Notes under the pieces: model-generated | Database searches by the model: none | What the model saw: the letters and a program-made list of their open reading frames with translations, nothing else | Told to the model about the DNA's origin: nothing | NCBI GenBank assembly: GCA_037310415.1 | Contig: CP147780.1 | Span: 2,432,001-2,496,000, forward strand | Direction: 5' to 3' | Source of the DNA: Candidatus Atabeyarchaeum deiterrae | Lineage (GTDB): Archaea > Asgardarchaeota > Atabeyarchaeia > Atabeyarchaeales > Atabeyarchaeaceae | DNA length: 64,000 bases | In this document: positions 1-9,757 of the stretch, one piece after another | How the letters are laid out: every line of letters begins with the position of its first letter | Position numbering within the stretch: position 1 is the first letter of the stretch | Program-made: the position numbers and the translations under genes

Positions 1-597
1 TCCACTTCAATTGAGAGAAACATGAAGATAGCGCTGCGAGAATTGAATAAGCTTACAACACTTCTTAATCTGCCGAGAACGCTAAGAGAGTCAGCAGTTA
101 TTTACTACAACAAGCTGGTCAAGGAAAAACTGACATGGGGTCGGCGTATCGAGGAAGTCGTTGCAGCGGCTGTCTTCATAGCGAGTAGACTGGCGGGGAT
201 ACCCCACGACCTCGAGGAGATCAGCCAATATGCGGAGGTAAAGGAGAAGAATGTCGGTAGAGCCGTGAGGCTGGCGTTGGATAAACTGAAGATACGTCTT
301 CCTCCGCCCTCGGCCAAGAACTACGTCCCCAAGTATGTCTCGGATCTTGGTTTGCCGTACGAGGTTGCCTCTCGCGCCATCAGACTTCTCGAAGAGGTTG
401 AAGCAAAAGGTCTAGCAACTGGAAGAGATCCCTCTTGCCTTGCAGGAGCTGCAATCTATATTGCCACTAAGCTTGAGGGGAGGCCGAAGACGCAGATCGA
501 AGTCGCGGGAGTTGTGCATTGCAGCGAACTAACAATAAGGAACAGGAGCAAAGAGATGGGGAAGTTCCTTGGCATAGATATCAAGATCGGAGGATGA
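1..597 (+). CDS. tfb: Transcription initiation factor IIB, 5'-truncated by window edge
   Basis: Frame is open from base 1 (STSIERNMKIALREL). Two cyclin-fold repeats with GRRIEEVVAAAVFIASR and GRDPSCLAGAAIYIA...KTQIEVA...SELTIRNR motifs. Confidence 0.95.
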   Translation, partial: STSIERNMKIALRELNKLTTLLNLPRTLRESAVIYYNKLVKEKLTWGRRIEEVVAAAVFIASRLAGIPHDLEEISQYAEVKEKNVGRAVRLALDKLKIRLPPPSAKNYVPKYVSDLGLPYEVASRAIRLLEEVEAKGLATGRDPSCLAGAAIYIATKLEGRPKTQIEVAGVVHCSELTIRNRSKEMGKFLGIDIKIGG

Positions 598-785
598 GGA
601 TCTCCACAGGCGACACGAACTTGTTTCAACCGTGTCCTCTGAAAGTGCAGACTGAGAAGTGCGTGGCCATTCTCTTGGACTGGGTTACTTGCGGTACTAC
701 CCCTGGCACTTTGTCGATCAGCAAGATACAGAATAGGCTTATATTATTCGGACATCGATTAAACACTAGTGAGTGTTGAATCACG

Positions 786-801
786 ACAAAAGGTTTAACT
801 T
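786..801 (+). promoter_or_regulatory. Putative BRE/TATA promoter for the longin-7TM pair
   Basis: acaaaaggtttaactt about 95 nt upstream of ATG 894. Confidence 0.35.
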
Positions 802-893
802 ATGGAAGTCAATGCCTAGAATACTCTTGATTACCAGAATCATGCAATTACTACCCGCTCGAAAAGACAACGCATCTAGAGGGGAAGATCAAG

Positions 894-1430
894 ATGATTG
901 AATCACTATACATCGTTGATTCCTCAGGCATATGTCTCTACTCTGCTCCCCTCTCATCCGCAAAACAGGTTGGCTCAGACATGATCTGTGGGTTCATAGT
1001 TGCTCAAAACCAGTATTTTCAAGAAGCATTTGGGGAAAGCACCAAGAAGTTCACGCTAGAGAAAAAAGAGATTCTCATCCAAACTGTTGACCTAAAGAGT
1101 AGAAATGTTCTCTTAGCTCTCTCCTATAACTTGGGTGACAAGAGGGAAGAGAGCTTCGCAAAGACAATTCTCGATGGTCTATCCAGAAGCCTGAAAGGTA
1201 AGGAACAGATCTTCAAGAACCTCCCAGGGATCTCGACAAAGGAGCTAGATGAAGAACTGTCCAAGATTCTTGAGAAGACACTGAAGAATATTCTCTGCCT
1301 ATATTTAGTCAAAGGGTTCTTAGGTATTACTAATCACTGTCGGAAAACCGATACTCCTATAACTGATGACCGTCCGTGTGACTTCAACTATGCAGTCTTT
1401 CACTGCGATCGGTATAATCTCAAAACCTGA
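894..1430 (+). CDS. Longin-like domain protein with C-terminal 4-Cys tail
   Basis: N-terminus MIESLYIVDSSGICLYS...DMICGFIVAQNQYFQEAFG...KKFTLEKKEILI follows the longin beta-beta-alpha-beta-beta-beta-alpha pattern. Tail is C-x13-C-x12-C-x8-C. Confidence 0.7.
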   Translation: MIESLYIVDSSGICLYSAPLSSAKQVGSDMICGFIVAQNQYFQEAFGESTKKFTLEKKEILIQTVDLKSRNVLLALSYNLGDKREESFAKTILDGLSRSLKGKEQIFKNLPGISTKELDEELSKILEKTLKNILCLYLVKGFLGITNHCRKTDTPITDDRPCDFNYAVFHCDRYNLKT

Positions 1431-1456
1431 TGCGCTGTCTTGATGGAGGTAAGACT

Positions 1457-2158
1457 ATGGTGTCGTTGGCGCCCTTACTGATGTCGACTAACGCTATCCT
1501 TTTCATCGCAGTGGGCCTTATATTGATTGCCAGGGTGAGAGAAGCAAAAGGCTCACTACTCCCTGCAAAAATCAGCGTCGTTCTTGCGACTTTCTCGGCA
1601 GCTGGGACATTCATAACGGAAGCTGTTTCAGCCTTGAACTATCAGAACGTGTTACTAGTAAAACAGCTTTACCCCATTGAAGACCTGTTTGCAATGTTGG
1701 TTCTGGCATTTCTTGTGTCTTTCGCACTTTTTGCAACTTATAGCGGTTTTGATCGAAACGTGGTAGTAGTGCTTGTCTTTTTGTTGGCTCTGATCCCACC
1801 CGCTTATTTGACTCTTTCATATAATGAGGCTGTTGTGGGCGGAATCGATGAATTTGGCACTCTCATCTTCTCATCACCACCTTTGACTCATATCCTGTAT
1901 GCGATATGCGGCATTCCGCTGGGAGTACTGCCAATCTTAGTATTCGCCAGAACCTTTTTGATGGCGAGAAAAAGAGGAGATAAGATGCTGAGCAACAGGA
2001 GTGCGATCATGCTCTCGGCAGTCGCTGTCAACGAGGTATGCTACCTTATCTACGTTTTTGGGGGAGGAATATTCTCGTTGGGTGCGCTTATAGCTTGGAT
2101 ACCGGCAGCATTCTTCCTGCTGTACGCTGTGCTTAAGATTACAAGTTCGATTAAGTAA
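1457..2158 (+). CDS. Seven-transmembrane protein (stand-alone sensor-like)
   Basis: Seven hydrophobic segments by eye. SD ggaggt at 1445-1450 precedes ATG 1457 (ORF track start 1430 overlaps the upstream stop). Confidence 0.75.
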   Translation: MVSLAPLLMSTNAILFIAVGLILIARVREAKGSLLPAKISVVLATFSAAGTFITEAVSALNYQNVLLVKQLYPIEDLFAMLVLAFLVSFALFATYSGFDRNVVVVLVFLLALIPPAYLTLSYNEAVVGGIDEFGTLIFSSPPLTHILYAICGIPLGVLPILVFARTFLMARKRGDKMLSNRSAIMLSAVAVNEVCYLIYVFGGGIFSLGALIAWIPAAFFLLYAVLKITSSIK

Positions 2159-2269
2159 AACAGCAGGGTCAAGAGCCTGCTCCAAGGCACATTCGGCGAA
2201 ATATCTTCTACGTAGATGAACAAATAGAGCCGGCAATCAAAAAGGATGTTTTGCTGGATAAACCAGCGC

Positions 2270-3079
2270 TTAAAGTTTGTCAATGAAACCTTTGACAGCT
2301 TTGTTGAACTCGCCGGGTGATTCTATCATCGAGTGATGACCTATCTTTGGCTTGATCACTACCAGCTGAGAGTTCTTTATGTGATCCTTCATGTACTGAG
2401 AGTTCTTTGGATCCATCTGCCCATCTGTATCACTTGATATTATTAACACCGGAATGTTGATTTGCGCCAGCTTGTCTGTGCAGTCGTATTCTGCTACCCA
2501 AGATTCGACGCAGTTTGTCAATACGTGTTCTGGGCACTTCAAAGTCTCTTGAACGAATTTCTGGAAAAAGTCTTTGTGTTCATTGATGAACTTCGAGTTG
2601 AACCCTGTCCGATTTATGTTCTCAGCTGCCTGTTGGCGTGATCCCAAGAGTCCTTTCTTCAAGGCTTCCCCTAGTCCCTTCATCCCGGGATTTCCTTTTA
2701 GAGCGTATGTTGTATGACAGAGTATCAGTGCTTTCAGTTTCCTCGATAATGTTGGATCGGTGGCATAGGAAAGAGAAATGAACCCGCCCATAGAGTGACC
2801 GCACAGGACAAACCTCTCCTTGCTTAGAAGTTTATCGAACAACTGATTCGATTCGTCCAGGAACTCACGTACGGTGTAGCGAGCTTGCGGTTTGTCTGAA
2901 GCACCGTGTCCCTTCAAGTCAGGCGTGATGACCCGGTAGTACTTCGAAAGATAAGTGATCTGGTTTTGCCAGACAAAGCTATTCATTGACCACCCATGCA
3001 ACAACACAAGTGGGGGTGCTCCACTTCCTTCTTCCTTGTAGAATATTTTCGTTCCATCCTTCAAATTAAAGAAGGTCAA
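2270..3079 (-). CDS. Alpha/beta hydrolase
   Basis: LLHGW oxyanion motif, GHSMGG nucleophile elbow, C-terminal His (IGHHSMIE). Confidence 0.92.
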   Translation of the reverse strand: MTFFNLKDGTKIFYKEEGSGAPPLVLLHGWSMNSFVWQNQITYLSKYYRVITPDLKGHGASDKPQARYTVREFLDESNQLFDKLLSKERFVLCGHSMGGFISLSYATDPTLSRKLKALILCHTTYALKGNPGMKGLGEALKKGLLGSRQQAAENINRTGFNSKFINEHKDFFQKFVQETLKCPEHVLTNCVESWVAEYDCTDKLAQINIPVLIISSDTDGQMDPKNSQYMKDHIKNSQLVVIKPKIGHHSMIESPGEFNKAVKGFIDKL

Positions 3080-3160
3080 AGCATATTCTCCTCCTTATTT
3101 CGCATTATGAATGCATGATATGCCATTCATTCTTTTGATATTTGTGCTCTTGCATCGCCT

Positions 3161-3177
3161 TGAAAAAGAAAAGAAGG
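3161..3177 (-). terminator. Oligo-T terminator after ThDP enzyme gene
   Basis: Minus strand reads ccttcttttctttttca shortly after the stop at 3213. Confidence 0.4.
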
Positions 3178-3212
3178 CTCCTACAAGAGAGAACCTATAT
3201 CAGGATTTCTTG

Positions 3213-4997
3213 TTATGCCTCCTCGGCTTCAGCTGGCGCCCTTTCAGCGACTTCCATTTCCTTCTCTGGCGCCTCAATCTTGGGAGCCTTGACACCTTCA
3301 AGCCAGATCGACAGTATCAATCCCAAGTCTGGAGGCACCAAATGTATGTCTCTATTAACCATGACATCGAGTACTGCTGGGAGATGGCTGTCAACGGCTC
3401 TTTTCAGAGCTGGTTTGATTTCGGTTGGAGACTCCACTCGCTCTCCGTAACAGCCCATAGCTTTTGCCACTTGGTCATAACGGACATCGGTGAAGTCTAC
3501 TCCCTCAAACCTCGATTCGAAGCTCAATTTCTGACCTCCCTTAATCATGCCCCATTGTATGTCGTTGATCACAACTGCTATGATGTTTGCGCCGACGCGT
3601 TTAGCAGTTTCAAGCTCATGTATACTCAGCATGAAAGCCCCGTCGCCTGCAAGCAAGTAGACCGGCGTGTCTGGCTTGGCAAGTTTCGCTCCGATAGCAT
3701 AAGGCAGTCCCACTCCCAGGTGCCCAGAGTCAACAGCCGCCAGAAGAGTTCTAGGTTCATAGAACCTGTTTGCGTATAGCGCCCACACCGAAGTGTTACC
3801 ACCGTCAAGGCAGCAAATGGCGTTTCTAGGGAAAAAGTCTCTAACCTCTTTGATCACCCGCAATGTATGAATCGGTTTGGCGTTTGAAGTCAATGCTGCT
3901 TGGAATCCTTTCAACCAAGCTCTCTGAGCATCCCTCGCCTTCTCGAGTTTTGGATTCTCACTTCTCCTTGAAGTCAGGTTCTTAACTTCTTTCAGCAGTA
4001 GCGACAGAGTTACCTTAGCGTCACCAATTATGGCTATGTCAACTGGACGATTAAGACCAATTATCGAACCAGAGATGTCAATTTGGATGAGCTTCTGCTT
4101 CTCCGGAGTTGCCCACATTATTGGCTTGCCCCACATCTCATAGTCACCGAGCCTTCCTCCGACAAGGAGCACGACATCCGCTTGAGGTTGTGCCGTCAAT
4201 AATCCGTAGCCAGGCGTTACTAAGGCAAGAGGATGATCCTCAGGGACTACTCCTCTGGCTGTCGGTGAAGTCGTGACTGGCGCCGCAAGGTGCTCCGCAA
4301 GCGCAACTAATTCCTTGGAAGCCTCTGATTGTAGCACTCCCCCGCCAGCATGAATCAGCGGGAACTCTGCCTTCACAAGCATCTGTGCTGCCTTTTTGAT
4401 AGCATCAGGGTTTCCTGCTGGAGGATTTAGACATCTGTATGATTCAGGGGGAAGGATAGTTTTGGTGTCAACTTCACCTTGAGTCCAAAGGACATCCACG
4501 GGTAGGTCAACATGCACTGGACCCGGTCTGCCACTCGTGGCTTCTCTGAATGCCCTCTGAATGATTTCGGGAATTCTTTGGAAATGGGACACAACTGCAT
4601 TCCATTTAGTAATGCCTTTGAACAAGGCAAATTGGTCTAATCCTTGCGTGGATCCATGATCAGGATATGATTTCCACGTCTGGTTCTGGGCAGTTAGCGC
4701 TAAGACTGGAATACTATCGGCATATGCTGGATATAATCCTGGAATCAAGTTCGCTGCACCAGGTCCAACTGTCCCCATACACACGCCGGGAATACCAGTT
4801 ATTCGAGCGAAAGCATCAGCCATATTTGCCGCCGCTTCTTCGTGTCGCGCCCCAATGTATTTTATGTCAGCATCTTCGCCAAGCCTTTGAATCGCGTCAA
4901 CAAAGGTTAGCAACTGTCCGCCGACTATTCCAAAAACAAACTTGACTTTTTCCTGCTCCAGACACTTCAGGAGCAGCTCACCGCCAGATAACTTCAA
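3213..4997 (-). CDS. Thiamine diphosphate-dependent enzyme (acetolactate synthase large subunit / 2-hydroxyacyl-CoA lyase superfamily)
   Basis: RHEEAAANMADAFAR, GPGAAN, GRPGPVHVDLP and GDGAF...VINDIQWGMIK motifs. Start reassigned to TTG 4997 after SD ggaggg. Confidence 0.9.
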   Translation of the reverse strand: MKLSGGELLLKCLEQEKVKFVFGIVGGQLLTFVDAIQRLGEDADIKYIGARHEEAAANMADAFARITGIPGVCMGTVGPGAANLIPGLYPAYADSIPVLALTAQNQTWKSYPDHGSTQGLDQFALFKGITKWNAVVSHFQRIPEIIQRAFREATSGRPGPVHVDLPVDVLWTQGEVDTKTILPPESYRCLNPPAGNPDAIKKAAQMLVKAEFPLIHAGGGVLQSEASKELVALAEHLAAPVTTSPTARGVVPEDHPLALVTPGYGLLTAQPQADVVLLVGGRLGDYEMWGKPIMWATPEKQKLIQIDISGSIIGLNRPVDIAIIGDAKVTLSLLLKEVKNLTSRRSENPKLEKARDAQRAWLKGFQAALTSNAKPIHTLRVIKEVRDFFPRNAICCLDGGNTSVWALYANRFYEPRTLLAAVDSGHLGVGLPYAIGAKLAKPDTPVYLLAGDGAFMLSIHELETAKRVGANIIAVVINDIQWGMIKGGQKLSFESRFEGVDFTDVRYDQVAKAMGCYGERVESPTEIKPALKRAVDSHLPAVLDVMVNRDIHLVPPDLGLILSIWLEGVKAPKIEAPEKEMEVAERAPAEAEEA

Positions 4998-5272
4998 GGT
5001 TATTTTTCGCCCTCCATTGGGATTATTTCTTCTTTTTGATCGATAATTGCTATTGCATTCGAACATGAACCTTCTGGATATAATGGTAATATCTGAAGCC
5101 AACCAAGATATCATCTTTTGCATTCTTCGTGGCTCAATAAGTCCGCTCCAATCACTCTGTATTGATATCTTGCCAAAAATGGGAAATGAGGAACCACTCT
5201 TGTCATAACTTTGCGTTTGAAGAACATCTTTCGGAGTGTACGTAAGCTTCAAAAAGAGGTGAAAAGGGATTC

Positions 5273-6433
5273 TTAGGTTCTGCCGTGTTTTCTGAATAGT
5301 AGCACGCCCATGAGGAGCACTGCGATGCTATAGGCTGACAATATTGCCATGTCGACTAGTATGATTGGACTTGTTACGGGGGCGCCTCTCAGCAGCAGTG
5401 ATGTCAAGGCGTCGGTAGCATAGTAGCTGGGTACGAACTGGCTGACTGCCTGCGCTGCAGACAATCCGGTTGTAACATATGTGCCTAGAAACATTAGAGG
5501 TAGTATGAAGATAAACGACAATCCCGTGGCAGCGCCTGAGGACTTGGCTAATGCGGCTGTGATTAGACCGAACCCGATGCAGCACAGCGAGAAGATCGAC
5601 ACGACAATGAATGCCACTATGATGTTTACAATATCGCCTTTTGCATGAAATCCAATGAGAAAAGCCGTCAGAAAGACTAGCGCGGCTTGAATGATTGCCA
5701 TAAGCATGTTGGATATAGCGCGACTTCCTAGGAACTCTGCGGGAGTAGTTGGTGTGATGTTGATTCTTCTCAACACGCCTGTTTGTCGTTCATCCACAAA
5801 TGACTGAGCGACAATCATGATCAGGAAGATTGCGGCGAAAGCGAAGAGACCTGGAGCCATGAAGTCAAAACCCGTATACTTAGTGACCTGCGTCAAAGAC
5901 GGGCTGCCAATCTTAATTGGGCCAGAAGTGGAGGTCTGATGAGATCCGAAGACCGTTGCCACTATTGCTTGTTGGACTATGGGAGGGATAGCTTGCGTGG
6001 CGAAGAGTGATCCGCTGTCAACATAGAGTTGGATCGTCGTGTTTGTCCACAGGCTCGAATTCGTTGGGTACTGTATGAATGAGACGCAGCTTTCGCTGAA
6101 GTTTTCCGGGATGATCATTACAGCCTGTATCCTGCCCTGAACAAGGTCTGCCTGTGCAGCTGCGTTGGTTGAGTAGTCCGAGACTATGATGATTTTGCTT
6201 TCAGTTAGGTTGCCTATTAAGTAGTTTGAAGACTGGTATGGAGGAGTCAAAGGATCTTGGTTGACAACGCCGACTTGGTAAGTAGTCGACCCCCCGCCGA
6301 TCGCCCCGAAGGACACTCCAAGTGCCAAGGTGAGAATCACAGGGAAAAGCAGAAGCAGGAAAAATGCGGCCGGTTCTCTCTTCAGTTTCTTGAGATCAGC
6401 TTTGGTGAGTGCAGAGACTCTTCTGAACTTCAT
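5273..6433 (-). CDS. ABC-2 type exporter permease
   Basis: N-terminal TM, large extracellular loop, ER-x-x-G-x-L-RR motif (ERQTGVLRR) and further TMs. Adjacent to the ATPase. Confidence 0.9.
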   Translation of the reverse strand: MKFRRVSALTKADLKKLKREPAAFFLLLLFPVILTLALGVSFGAIGGGSTTYQVGVVNQDPLTPPYQSSNYLIGNLTESKIIIVSDYSTNAAAQADLVQGRIQAVMIIPENFSESCVSFIQYPTNSSLWTNTTIQLYVDSGSLFATQAIPPIVQQAIVATVFGSHQTSTSGPIKIGSPSLTQVTKYTGFDFMAPGLFAFAAIFLIMIVAQSFVDERQTGVLRRINITPTTPAEFLGSRAISNMLMAIIQAALVFLTAFLIGFHAKGDIVNIIVAFIVVSIFSLCCIGFGLITAALAKSSGAATGLSFIFILPLMFLGTYVTTGLSAAQAVSQFVPSYYATDALTSLLLRGAPVTSPIILVDMAILSAYSIAVLLMGVLLFRKHGRT

Positions 6434-6434
6434 C

Positions 6435-7193
6435 TCACACTTCCTCCCTTATTCTTCTGCCCGTCAGCTGAATGAAAACATCTTCCAAGTTCTTTGCACC
6501 AGATCTTGCCTTCAGTTGCTTTGGAGCATCAAGTGAAATGAGTTTTCCGTGATCTATTATGCCGACTCGGTCGCAAAGTTCCTCAGCCTCCTCCATATAG
6601 TGAGTCGTCAGAAGCACGGTCTTGCCCTTCTTATTCATTTCTCTTATGAAATCCCAGACTGCATGACGAGATTGTGGATCCATTCCGACCGTTGGTTCGT
6701 CGAGAAACACTATCTCAGGATCATTAACCAGTGCCATCACCAAGTTTAGCCGGCGTTTCATGCCTCCGCTGTATGTTCCAGCTCGCCTCTTGGCATCTTC
6801 CAGCAAACTCATCTTCGCTAATAGCCCTTCTGTGTTCTTCTTAAGTCTGCCTTTCGGCACCAAATACAGATTTGCGAGAAGCTCAACATTTTCCCTTCCG
6901 GTGAGGTAAGGTATTATTGCTGAATCTTGCGGACAGACGCCTATCATCTGTTTGACTTTCATCGATTCCTTCTGGACGTTGTATCCGCCAACCGTGGCAG
7001 AGCCAGCTGTAGGTTCTACGAGACCAACGAGAACATTGATTGTGGTGGTTTTTCCCGCGCCGTTTGGTCCAAGCAGCCCGAAGAGTTCTCCTTTTGCGAT
7101 TTCAAGGTTCAGTTCGTCAACCGCAGTGATCTCCCCATATTTCTTTGTTAGATCATTTATAATGATTGCTGCCTTTTTCATGTTCTCACTCAT
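6435..7193 (-). CDS. ABC exporter ATP-binding protein (DrrA/NodI-like)
   Basis: GPNGAGKTT, YSGGMKRR, LDEPT and TTHYMEEAE motifs. Confidence 0.96.
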   Translation of the reverse strand: MSENMKKAAIIINDLTKKYGEITAVDELNLEIAKGELFGLLGPNGAGKTTTINVLVGLVEPTAGSATVGGYNVQKESMKVKQMIGVCPQDSAIIPYLTGRENVELLANLYLVPKGRLKKNTEGLLAKMSLLEDAKRRAGTYSGGMKRRLNLVMALVNDPEIVFLDEPTVGMDPQSRHAVWDFIREMNKKGKTVLLTTHYMEEAEELCDRVGIIDHGKLISLDAPKQLKARSGAKNLEDVFIQLTGRRIREEV

Positions 7194-7351: not shown

Positions 7352-9757
7352 CTAGAGTTGATGCGCCGTCCGGGAGATTATCTCGTCTTGCATCTCTTTT
7401 CCAAGCATAACAAAGTAAGCGTTGTATCCTGTGACCCTCACTAACAAGTTCTGATAATTGTCGGGATGTTTCTGGGCATCCTTCAAAGTGTCCACATCTA
7501 CTAAGTTGACCTGCAAGCTTGTTCCGCCCAACTTATCGAATGCTCTAAGTAATGCTCCGAATTTCCTCAGGTGCTCTTCATCTCTGAAAGTTGCTGGGCT
7601 GAGTGTTATCACGTATGATGCGCCATTGGGAACGACATCGTATCCAAGTTTGCAGACAGACTTGAATGCCGCGGTCGGTCCCTTCACATCTCTTCCTTGT
7701 ACTGGAGAGACACCGTTTGACAGGAACCTTCCCCGTTTTCTGCCGTCTGGCGTGGAGGCGACCTTTGGTCCATTGTCAATGAAGTAATTCCATGAGAGGT
7801 AGCCAGCTCTGTATTTTCGTCCAGTTGCAGGCGAAGTGTATTTAATCACTTCTTGAGCCCAAAACCTTGACAGTTCTCTTGCTATGCTGTCAGCATACTC
7901 GCTGTCATTTCCGTATTTTGGTGCCTCATTTATGAGCATTTGTCTTAGTTTCTCGTTTCCTGCGAAATCTTTCTTGATAGTTTCGACGAGATCCTTCATT
8001 GAGACTTTCTTGTCATCATAAACCAGTTTCTTAACTGCTGTAACCGAGTCAGCGAGAGTTGCGATGCCAACTCCTTCCACAGTTATGAAATTGTATAATG
8101 TGCCACCTTGTCTTACATCCTTTCCTTTCTCCAAGCAGCCTTGCATTAGAGCCGAGCAGTATGGAATGGGCTCGAATTGAGCTCTTATGGCGTCGAAGCC
8201 GCTGGCCAAGTCGATGGTGTGCTTCAGGATCGCTTTAATCTGTTCTTTGACAGCAGTCATGAACTGGTCATATGTCTTGAGATTCGTTGGGTCACCCGTA
8301 TTCGGTCCGATTTGTTCGCCTGTTGCCATGTTCCTACCATCATTCAGTGCCAGCTCAATGGCTTTGGCTAGGTCGGGGTTAACGTCTACTGTGCCCGACC
8401 TGTCTCGCCCATATTGGGCCGTGTTCTCTAAGCAACCAACGACACCATAATCCCAAGCCTCCTTGGGGTCAATTCCTTCCTTGATGAGTGCAGGTATTAC
8501 TATTCCATCGAAGTTCAACAGGAATGGAGAACCATGACACTTCTTGATAGATTCGCACAGCCGGAGCATGAAACCGTCAGGTGTATTCTTGTGTATCCTG
8601 ATAGAACGCTTGGGCTCAAGTAAGTCTAGATCCTCGATCGCTTCCAGAAAAACATAGGTCAAGTCATTAGTCACGTCTTCCCCAGTCGGGCCTTGCCCTC
8701 CAAGCGTCATTAGCTGGCCGAAGCCTGCGCTTATGCCTTTGTCACCAAGGCGTGCGAAATCGTAGGCGTAGTTATGCTTGATCATCCAACACTCCACAAG
8801 CTCCTTAGCATAGTCACGCGTTAGCTCACCTGACTCCAAGTCTTTCTTATAGAATGGGAACAGGTATTGGTCTATTCTTCCGTGCGAGAGCCCTGGACCA
8901 GGGTAGGATTCTGCTAGCATGAACAACATGTGAGTGAGCCAAAGTGATTGTAGTGCTTCATGGAAAGACTTAGCAGGGGTCCAAGGAACTTTTTCGCAGA
9001 TCTCTGCAACCTTCTCCAATTCCTTCCTTCGTTGGGCATCCTTCTCCTGCCGAGCCAGTCTTCTAGCTTCCGCAACATACCTCTCAAAGAACTCTTTTGC
9101 GGCATCGCAGCAGATGACTATTGAGCGGGCTAGATTTTTCTTCTCTTCAGTGTCTGCTTTCTTCTCAAGGAATTGCTCTGCCTCTTCCTTTACTGATTTG
9201 AACCCCTCTTTTAGTACTCGTGGATAGTTTGGTATGATGTGACCTGGTATGGAGCCACAATTCATTACTCCAATGTTACATAGGTGGATCTCCTTGGCAA
9301 CAAGCTCATCCTCTCTCTTCTTCCACTCGGCAGCCTCATTTTGATCCAGGCAAAGCGAGAAGGCTGTGTTGAACTGCCCACCCACTACGAGTTCTCCTTC
9401 CAGAATTTGCACTGGGATCACGCGGAGAACTTGCTGCAAGAATATGGCTTTCCTGATAATCAGCGGTTCATCCCAGAACCCTTCAGGTAAGTCCACTTTC
9501 TGAGCAAGAGCTAGAAGGCTCTCGCAAATCGGCTTAAGGAAATCAATTTCCTCGGGAACCGTAATCCAGTTATGGGGGACAAACACGGCGTCCCAAGACT
9601 TGCCAGTAGTGTAAGGCATAACCTCATTCCTGAAGTAATCTCTATTGTCATAATCAAAATACTCATCTCTCAACTTCCTGACTCTAGGAGAAAGCGACTT
9701 GGAGGGCTCCCACGTCTCTAACTTGTTTGAAATAGGCACTTTAGCAACTTGAACCAA
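7352..9757 (-). CDS. Glycyl radical enzyme (PFL2/PflD-like)
   Basis: GRIDQYLFPF, thiyl loop GVVGCLE, PKYGND, TPDGR and C-terminal glycyl motif LLVRVTGYNAYF; 801 aa. Confidence 0.93.
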   Translation of the reverse strand: MVQVAKVPISNKLETWEPSKSLSPRVRKLRDEYFDYDNRDYFRNEVMPYTTGKSWDAVFVPHNWITVPEEIDFLKPICESLLALAQKVDLPEGFWDEPLIIRKAIFLQQVLRVIPVQILEGELVVGGQFNTAFSLCLDQNEAAEWKKREDELVAKEIHLCNIGVMNCGSIPGHIIPNYPRVLKEGFKSVKEEAEQFLEKKADTEEKKNLARSIVICCDAAKEFFERYVAEARRLARQEKDAQRRKELEKVAEICEKVPWTPAKSFHEALQSLWLTHMLFMLAESYPGPGLSHGRIDQYLFPFYKKDLESGELTRDYAKELVECWMIKHNYAYDFARLGDKGISAGFGQLMTLGGQGPTGEDVTNDLTYVFLEAIEDLDLLEPKRSIRIHKNTPDGFMLRLCESIKKCHGSPFLLNFDGIVIPALIKEGIDPKEAWDYGVVGCLENTAQYGRDRSGTVDVNPDLAKAIELALNDGRNMATGEQIGPNTGDPTNLKTYDQFMTAVKEQIKAILKHTIDLASGFDAIRAQFEPIPYCSALMQGCLEKGKDVRQGGTLYNFITVEGVGIATLADSVTAVKKLVYDDKKVSMKDLVETIKKDFAGNEKLRQMLINEAPKYGNDSEYADSIARELSRFWAQEVIKYTSPATGRKYRAGYLSWNYFIDNGPKVASTPDGRKRGRFLSNGVSPVQGRDVKGPTAAFKSVCKLGYDVVPNGASYVITLSPATFRDEEHLRKFGALLRAFDKLGGTSLQVNLVDVDTLKDAQKHPDNYQNLLVRVTGYNAYFVMLGKEMQDEIISRTAHQL

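Follow-up and report, generated by a model that had tools for sequence, protein, structure and literature searches.

What a eukaryote-type longin protein does in an archaeal cell, and with which partner, is the question raised by a two-gene locus of Candidatus Atabeyarchaeum deiterrae. Of the eukaryotic signature proteins (ESPs) in Asgard archaea, longin and roadblock proteins rank with the most expanded, and to our knowledge almost none of them has a known partner. The locus lies in a stretch of 64,000 nucleotides (nt), here called the window (CP147780.1, positions 2432001-2496000; the genome is a single contig of 2.76 Mb). It consists of gene A, encoding a cytoplasmic longin protein with a four-cysteine (Cys4) tail, and gene B, encoding a stand-alone seven-transmembrane (7TM) protein (Table 1). 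A reading made from the sequence alone had proposed that the 7TM protein recruits the longin protein and couples an extracellular cue to small-GTPase regulation. We conclude that the A/B pair is a real, previously undescribed Asgard membrane module made of known kinds of parts. Our preferred reading, that A and B form a split membrane sensor/adaptor module encoded as an operon, we put at about an even chance of being right.

Genes A and B are genuine rather than chance open reading frames (ORFs), judging by their homologues, since they recur in 24 and 36 homologue clusters, respectively, with best E values of 1e-71 and 1e-78 and identities of 44-65%. The homologues come exclusively from Njord/Atabey-type metagenomic or metagenome-assembled genome contigs and are without annotation. 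Single homologues carry the labels "O-acyltransferase-like" or "Mg-transporting ATPase," which family searches do not support and which we rejected as spurious. Both ORFs were found where the sequence-only reading had placed them. The spacer between them (1431-1456) is exactly 26 nt and contains a Shine-Dalgarno (SD) sequence, and the tight codirectional spacing together with a dedicated SD suggests an operon. The start of gene A (MIESLY) agrees with all homologues. A second possible ATG for gene B at 1430 overlaps the stop of gene A (TGATG), but homologues all begin at MV.., and thus the start is 1457. The antisense strand over the two genes holds ORFs of only 62-99 amino acids (aa). Searches of Pfam and NCBIfam with the two products (P0001 and P0002) returned nothing but subthreshold noise. 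Rfam recognized no RNA family within 1-3200, and 600-2300, when searched for repeats, yielded no meaningful one. A 20-nt direct repeat of 75% identity (776-795 and 898-917; TTGAATCAC...) spans the leader and first codons of gene A and is probably due to chance.

How much of gene A is a longin can be read from its predicted structure. The AlphaFold2 (AF2) model, built on a 24-member alignment, has a predicted local distance difference test score (pLDDT) of 79.6 and a predicted template modeling score (pTM) of 0.78. DSSP assigns strands to residues 4-9, 14-19, 52-55, 58-66, and 71-79 and helices to residues 28-46, 83-101, and 115-131, giving the order β1-β2-α1-β3-β4-β5-α2-α3 with no N-terminal helix. 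Longins lack the N-terminal helix of roadblock/LC7 proteins and end in two helices (PMC10933270), and by that definition gene A encodes a longin rather than a roadblock protein. Foldseek against the PDB returned TRAPP Bet5, CPLANE Fuzzy, AP2 sigma, zeta-COP, Mon1-Ccz1, LAMTOR, and MglB (E, 1.5e-4 to 1e-3; probability, 1.00). Moreover, VIA-align superposed residues 1 to ~134-138 on Trs23, Mon1/Ccz1, BLOC-3, Fuzzy, AP sigma, Sec22b, and VAMP7 with Z scores of 10.1-12.5 over 115-146 residues; for the set of Trs23, Mon1/Ccz1, Fuzzy, AP sigma, Sec22b, and VAMP7, root mean square deviations (rmsd) were 2.6-3.8 Å over 115-134 residues, and 228 chains reached a Z score of 8 or more. At an E value of ≤1, no curated longin profile (Pfam PF13774, PF19036, PF04099, and others) matched P0001 or the 24 members of its family, and PDB sequence and profile searches with the gene A and gene B family profiles gave nothing meaningful. 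The Pfam longin link is transitive only, through a distant relative, L035 (locus handles are ours), that matches Fuz_longin_1 at 27.9 bits (cut-off, 26.1); two further distant relatives, L040 and L024, match the same profile below the cut-off. The predicted fold and its matches to solved longins bear out the longin pattern of the sequence-only reading, and residues 1-134 are confirmed, at the level of the model, as a true longin domain. By analogy with other longins, the domain is probably dimeric.

Beyond the longin domain, gene A carries a feature that is absent from the sequence-only reading and that a mechanism of any kind has to explain. Four cysteines in the tail (C135-x13-C149-x12-C162-x8-C171) are invariant in the 24-member family; the tail itself (residues 135-178) is poorly modeled, with a pLDDT of 47-70. 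When 301 Asgard genomes were searched with the gene A family profile, 72 had distant relatives, most of them either plain longins or proteins of another architecture (longin with tetratricopeptide repeats [TPRs], with a subthreshold HTH_47 match, or with weak P-loop matches). The longin-Cys4 design is common to three lineages, namely Atabey/Njord, Freyarchaeia/Jordarchaeia, and Borrarchaeum. The Atabey/Njord and Freyarchaeal/Jordarchaeal proteins align by hhalign with a probability of 98.3% and an E value of 2.4e-14, and a joint alignment of all three lineages, at ~20% identity, has 10 invariant columns, 4 of which are the tail cysteines. Because the cysteines stay invariant at such low identity, the tail probably binds a metal, either zinc or perhaps an Fe-S center. 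Pfam searches with isolated C-terminal tails (Atabey, Frey, Borr, and the Lokiarchaeal fusions described below) gave no match, and among longer proteins no fused form of gene A was found, which is weak evidence. To judge from these alignments, longin-Cys4 proteins are a previously unnamed family of at least three Asgard classes.

Relatives outside the pair differ in architecture. In Lokiarchaeota, the closest longin relatives (hhalign probability, 97.6%; E, 4.7e-12) are fused to a C-terminal membrane domain of 4-6 helices, and because of that fusion the clade to which gene A belongs appears to work at membranes. An hhalign comparison of the Lokiarchaeal membrane domain with the gene B family was not significant. 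In Borrarchaeum, the longin-Cys4 operon has no 7TM partner. The Borrarchaeal protein (P0093; 264 aa; L021:1222-2016, minus strand, and L023:1474-2268, plus strand) continues at its C terminus for a further 90 residues (..SPRKALEIMSKLEEKGLL..) that by eye resemble a winged helix-turn-helix (wHTH), a likeness that a Pfam search did not confirm. We note that TPR-repeat proteins of 630-750 aa in other Asgards also contain a related longin (L012:1-1896, plus strand, where it is C-terminal, and L007:2143-3423, minus strand).

What kind of membrane protein gene B encodes is likewise answered mostly by structure. Its AF2 model (pLDDT, 90.2; pTM, 0.87) has seven helices, at residues 4-25, 34-60, 65-94, 99-124, 144-173, 176-202, and 204-228, and a β-hairpin (126-139) that lies outside between TM4 and TM5. 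The chain ends 5 residues past TM7 and has no output domain, as the sequence-only reading had it. Lysines and arginines number 4 in loop 1, 5 in loop 5, and 2 at the C terminus and are absent from the N terminus and loops 2, 4, and 6; this distribution places the N terminus outside and the C terminus inside. In the ESM Atlas, the AF2 model matches clusters of the HisKA_7TM family (PF16927) with TM scores (by query) of 0.77-0.81 and rmsd of 2.5-3.1 Å over 215-224 residues; PF16927 is carried by 75-100% of the members of the matched clusters, and both sides of the comparison are predicted models. The Atlas's own, independently predicted model of the protein gives the same picture (TM score, 0.75-0.83). 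The matched clusters are fused to GGDEF/GAF, HisKA/HATPase, HD, PP2C, STAS, or archaeal DUF835 outputs, and HisKA_7TM is a recognized sensor module of archaeal kinases (PMC5847659). PDB matches were exclusively bundles of the G-protein-coupled receptor (GPCR)/rhodopsin type, with Foldseek E values of 1.6e-3 or worse and VIA-align Z scores of 13-16.3 (rmsd, 3.4-4.2 Å; identity, 6-15%), scores that helical bundles can reach by common arrangement alone.

By sequence, gene B is an orphan. It has no match to the Pfam 7tm families, such that its GPCR likeness is at fold level only, and the PF16927 profile (cut-off, 28.6 bits) does not match it at an E value of ≤10. The same profile finds no member in this genome (G000) or its relatives G001 and G002, and true members were found in other Asgards. 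Comparison of the gene B family with Asgard HisKA_7TM segments by hhalign gave a probability of 5.4%, and a profile search of 1.84 billion representative proteins of any length returned 12 matches, all to its own family, with no distant, longer, or fused relatives. We therefore do not assign gene B to HisKA_7TM, but its model looks like that sensor module and it probably works like one. A microbial rhodopsin, which would have a conserved Schiff-base lysine midway along TM7, was considered and rejected: the sole lysine of TM7 (K227) sits at the cytoplasmic end and is arginine in many homologues (..AVLRITS..).

Where gene B might sense its signal is suggested by conservation. Mean top-residue frequency is highest in TM3 (0.84), cytoplasmic loops 1 and 5 (0.78 and 0.75), and TM5 (0.72), which contains a GIPLG..P motif, and lowest in the outside loops 2, 4, and 6 (0.44, 0.58, and 0.28), which are also short. 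The pattern fits a cytoplasmic docking face and an intramembrane core. Because the outside loops are the least conserved, a conserved extracellular ligand site is disfavored, and sensing of any signal is more likely to take place within the membrane, or on the cytoplasmic side, than outside. Thus, of the membrane-signaling module first proposed, the longin fold, the stand-alone 7TM protein, the operon-like spacing, and the adjacency hold, and the extracellular cue does not find favor.

Pairing of the two genes extends beyond this genome. All Atabey/Njord loci whose flanks are long enough (this window, Atabeyarchaeia-1, LC30, and another three contigs, each distinct, from metagenomes) have an A-family gene with a B-family gene immediately after it on the same strand, 26-67 nt apart. 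Three of the loci have two tandem A paralogues upstream of the 7TM gene, and this window has a single copy. The upstream copy belongs to a divergent subgroup of ~46-51% identity, which hints that the paralogues may form a longin heterodimer. In Freyarchaeia/Jordarchaeia, a longin-Cys4 orthologue is followed by a seven-helix protein of 260-275 aa in six of six genomes (for example, locus tags WED07_03535/03540), at distances of 110-480 nt. There, the flanks differ from those of Atabey/Njord, with, for example, a coenzyme A-ligase-like gene downstream, and the pairing therefore outlives local synteny. We consider the Freyarchaeal recurrence stronger evidence than adjacency within Atabey/Njord. 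The adjacency of the two genes is thereby conserved in Atabey/Njord and, with other flanks, in a second Asgard class, Freyarchaeia. A second Freyarchaeal 7TM paralogue (L061:1486-2313, minus strand; Freyarchaeia G028:C322), 51% identical, has no adjoining longin gene and sits beside a broken fragment of a third copy with one internal TAG.

Whether A and B touch was approached by complex prediction. Three runs gave 0.03, 0.60, and 0.64, for a median of 0.60 and a rating of "weak support," and three controls all scored 0.00. The runs share at least 55% of their contacts, and partner pLDDT is at least 77. Of 80 solved complexes, 58 passed the mark used, as did 2 of 110 mismatched pairs; a score no higher than 0.60 was found for only 7 of the 80 solved complexes but for both of the passing mismatches. 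Custom alignments were used for A and B, and the benchmark counts apply only roughly. The prediction is a mild plus for binding.

If the split sensor/adaptor reading is right, gene B would be the sensor, a 7TM protein that lacks an output domain and whose predicted fold is HisKA_7TM-like, with helices arranged as in GPCRs and rhodopsins. The cytoplasmic half would come from gene A, which, with its longin domain and putative metal-binding Cys4 tail, would dock on the conserved, positively charged cytoplasmic face of gene B formed by loops 1 and 5 and the C terminus. From there, gene A would either relay a conformational change of the 7TM bundle or be tethered to the membrane, or freed from it, by gene B, and it would serve as an adaptor for a downstream partner. 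A receptor role for gene B fits because the predicted fold is that of a prokaryotic sensor module, and because that fold comes without an output domain, gene B appears to need a partner. We infer the physical binding of A to B, the direction of signaling, and the identities of signal and effector, much as we infer metal binding by the tail.

Several observations weigh against this split-module reading. Synteny in Atabey/Njord exceeds the pair and takes in the gene for a transcription factor B (TFB), A, B, and the genes for an α/β-hydrolase, a thiamine pyrophosphate (TPP)-dependent enzyme, and a glycyl-radical enzyme; since the whole neighborhood is syntenic, adjacency within that clade is partly inherited order and weak evidence by itself. 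The Freyarchaeal 7TM family has no detectable homology to the gene B family (hhalign probability, 1%). That the Freyarchaeal partner is of the same kind is read from transmembrane-helix counts and language-model features only; in the latter, the two proteins share an unnamed Promethearchaeota cluster and a 10%-HisKA_7TM cluster as neighbors, which serves as a lead only. Moreover, some Freyarchaeum longin-Cys4 paralogues have no 7TM neighbor. The A+B score lies in a band where, by the tool's own account, wrong calls outnumber correct ones unless a strong prior exists; a single run fell to 0.03. The tie between gene B and HisKA_7TM is one of predicted fold only, with Pfam, the profile search, and hhalign all negative, and seven-helix bundles converge easily. 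Finally, the metatranscriptome contig over the locus is limited to 768-1037 and is silent on gene B and on A-B cotranscription. That contig would fit a gene A transcript begun at a promoter of its own, upstream of 768, with carry-over of DNA possible, and three other RNA runs gave nothing over the locus.

Some of the same observations would be explained if A and B were not coupled at all and merely shared an inherited gene order, with A a soluble longin acting elsewhere in a trafficking-like or scaffold role and B an independent transporter, enzyme, or membrane-homeostasis factor. The large Atabey/Njord synteny block, the unrelated Freyarchaeal 7TM sequence, the Freyarchaeal gaps, and the weak complex support all point that way. 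However, the 26-nt spacing with its dedicated SD suggests an operon, and recurrence of a longin-Cys4 gene followed by a 7TM gene in a second class, in all six genomes and among other flanking genes, is unlikely to be chance. Moreover, the complex controls all scored 0.00, and the fold class of gene B is otherwise fused to signaling outputs. We doubt that the two genes are uncoupled.

Whether a GTPase acts downstream is a narrower question. Spelled out, the original proposal would have the 7TM protein recruit the longin as a platform of the guanine nucleotide exchange factor or GTPase-activating protein type, through which a cue would switch one of the small GTPases of the genome, in an archaeal analogue of the relay from membrane sensor by way of a longin/roadblock platform to Rag/Rab. 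The proposal amounts to the split sensor/adaptor reading with the effector named, and its GTPase step is speculation. The best structural matches of gene A are longins of GTPase platforms (Trs23/Bet5, Mon1-Ccz1, Fuzzy-Inturned, and BLOC-3) together with MglB, but non-GTPase longins (AP sigma, Sec22b, VAMP7, and SR-alpha) match equally well, and known GTPase platforms have nothing that corresponds to the invariant Cys4 tail. The genome encodes ~30 Ras/Rab/Arf-type small GTPases, and the distant relative L040 is fused to a P-loop/GTPase-like region (weak RsgA_GTPase/AAA matches alongside Fuz_longin_1). Longin-GTPase fusions are also known in Asgards (PMC10933270). However, no small GTPase gene lies in the operon or elsewhere in the 64-kb window, the closest being 7.9 kb upstream, and the related loci examined likewise have none beside the pair. 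Longin and roadblock genes of the cultured Lokiarchaeon are generally not in operons with GTPases (PMC10933270), which makes Asgard longin wiring hard to guess, and the lack of linkage at the locus neither supports nor excludes a GTPase effector. On balance, a GTPase platform seems to us unlikely.

The upstream TFB gene raises the prospect of a transcriptional output. Its product is the most divergent of three TFIIB paralogues in the genome (65 and 57 bits, versus 95/83 and 80/66), and at every Atabey/Njord locus the gene precedes the pair. No TFB gene was found near the pair in Freyarchaeum, and linkage of TFB to the pair as a general feature was rejected on that ground. A redox- or metal-responsive module in which Cys4 is the sensor, the 7TM protein is the tether, and transcription is the output, perhaps through this TFB in a sigma/anti-sigma-like manner, is highly improbable: no feature of the family is more conserved than the Cys4 pattern, the distant relative L035 has an HTH_47 match of 23.3 bits (below the 27.1-bit cut-off), and the Borrarchaeal tail resembles a wHTH, but the TFB link is perhaps mere synteny, 297 nt separate the TFB stop from the gene A start, and Cys4 sites are most often structural zinc.

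Downstream of gene B is a convergent block on the opposite strand (Table 1), and its order of hydrolase, TPP-dependent enzyme, and glycyl-radical enzyme is kept across the Atabey/Njord clade. In this window, a pair of ATP-binding cassette transporter genes (5273-7193) lies between the TPP-dependent enzyme and the glycyl-radical enzyme.

Table 1. Coordinates of the A/B locus, its neighbors, and related loci (positions refer to the window unless a locus handle is given)
Feature	Position	Strand	Length	Basis or remark
Divergent TFB (TFIIB) paralogue, 3' part	1..597	+		ORF; context only, immediately upstream
Metatranscriptome contig	768..1037	+	270 nt	100% identical; wetland library, run X1, depth 5
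SD-like GAGGGG of gene A	879..884	+		9 nt 5' of the ATG; direct sequence reading
Gene A (P0001), cytoplasmic longin-Cys4 protein	894..1430	+	178 aa	ORF; ATG 894, TGA 1428-1430
Longin domain of gene A, residues 1-134	894..1295	+		AF2 model, Foldseek, VIA-align
Cys4 tail of gene A, residues 135-178	1296..1427	+		Family alignment; putative metal-binding module
SD GGAGG of gene B	1445..1449	+		7 nt before the ATG, within the spacer; direct sequence reading
Gene B (P0002), stand-alone 7TM protein	1457..2158	+	233 aa	ORF; ATG 1457, TAA 2156-2158
α/β-Hydrolase	2270-3079	-		Convergent downstream block
TPP-dependent enzyme	3213-5252	-	679 aa	ORF listed from TTG; homologues called ~594 aa
Glycyl-radical enzyme	7352-9757	-		Convergent downstream block
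Tandem A paralogues, Atabeyarchaeia-1	L017:651-1190 and 1495-2037			
Tandem A paralogues	L065:5001-5570 and 5729-6271			
Tandem A paralogues	L068:4167-4688 and 5001-5543			
Lokiarchaeal longin-TM fusion	L022:1063-1872	-	~266 aa	Membrane domain without Pfam match
Lokiarchaeal longin-TM fusion	L025:1501-2301	+	~266 aa	Membrane domain without Pfam match; further relatives exist

Why the pair matters follows from what it joins. The locus offers a concrete, conserved, and directly testable two-protein pairing in which a eukaryote-type longin is tied to a prokaryote-type 7TM sensor fold. If A and B bind, they would make a compact system in which to study the role of Asgard longins at membranes, and if a GTPase lies downstream, they would bear on the pre-eukaryotic origin of signaling from membrane sensors to GTPases. 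We speculate, as a distinctly unlikely extension, that a GPCR-like archaeal 7TM protein acts through a longin-Cys4 adaptor on a Rab/Rag/Arf-like GTPase, a prokaryotic forerunner of Ragulator/GATOR-type logic present in at least Atabey/Njord and Freyarchaeia. Full-text literature searches found no description of the A/B pair or of the longin-Cys4 family, and the genome paper on Atabeyarchaeia lists longin domains only as an ESP category.

How the pair compares with known systems depends on which half is considered. With eukaryotic and Asgard longins (Trs23/Bet5-synbindin, Mon1/Ccz1/Fuzzy, AP sigma/zeta-COP, and Sec22b/VAMP7), residues 1-134 of gene A share fold and topology, but gene A adds the invariant Cys4 tail, lacks a direct Pfam longin match, and is partnered with a 7TM protein rather than with a GTPase, SNARE, or coat subunit. 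With HisKA_7TM, gene B shares seven helices and the outside hairpin between TM4 and TM5 over nearly its full length, as far as predicted folds go, but it has neither sequence membership nor a fused output domain. The closest theme in the literature is that of the NPRL2-like longin domains of Asgards, which often occur as fusions with two-component signaling domains (Liu et al., bioRxiv 10.1101/2020.10.19.343400) and likewise wire a eukaryote-type longin to prokaryotic signal-transduction parts. In contrast to those fusions, A and B are linked by a probable operon, the partner is a bare 7TM protein without kinase or receiver, the Cys4 tail is extra, and NPRL2 is not among the top VIA-align matches of gene A. 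MglB-MglA, Ragulator/Rag with SLC38A9, and GATOR1 with the GPCR-like LYCHOS place roadblock or longin platforms at a membrane beside a polytopic sensor. MglB and LAMTOR are among the structural matches of gene A, and the GPCR-like domain of LYCHOS is among those of gene B (Z, 13.4). Genes A and B have no sequence relationship to these systems, however, and the likeness would be one of functional analogy.

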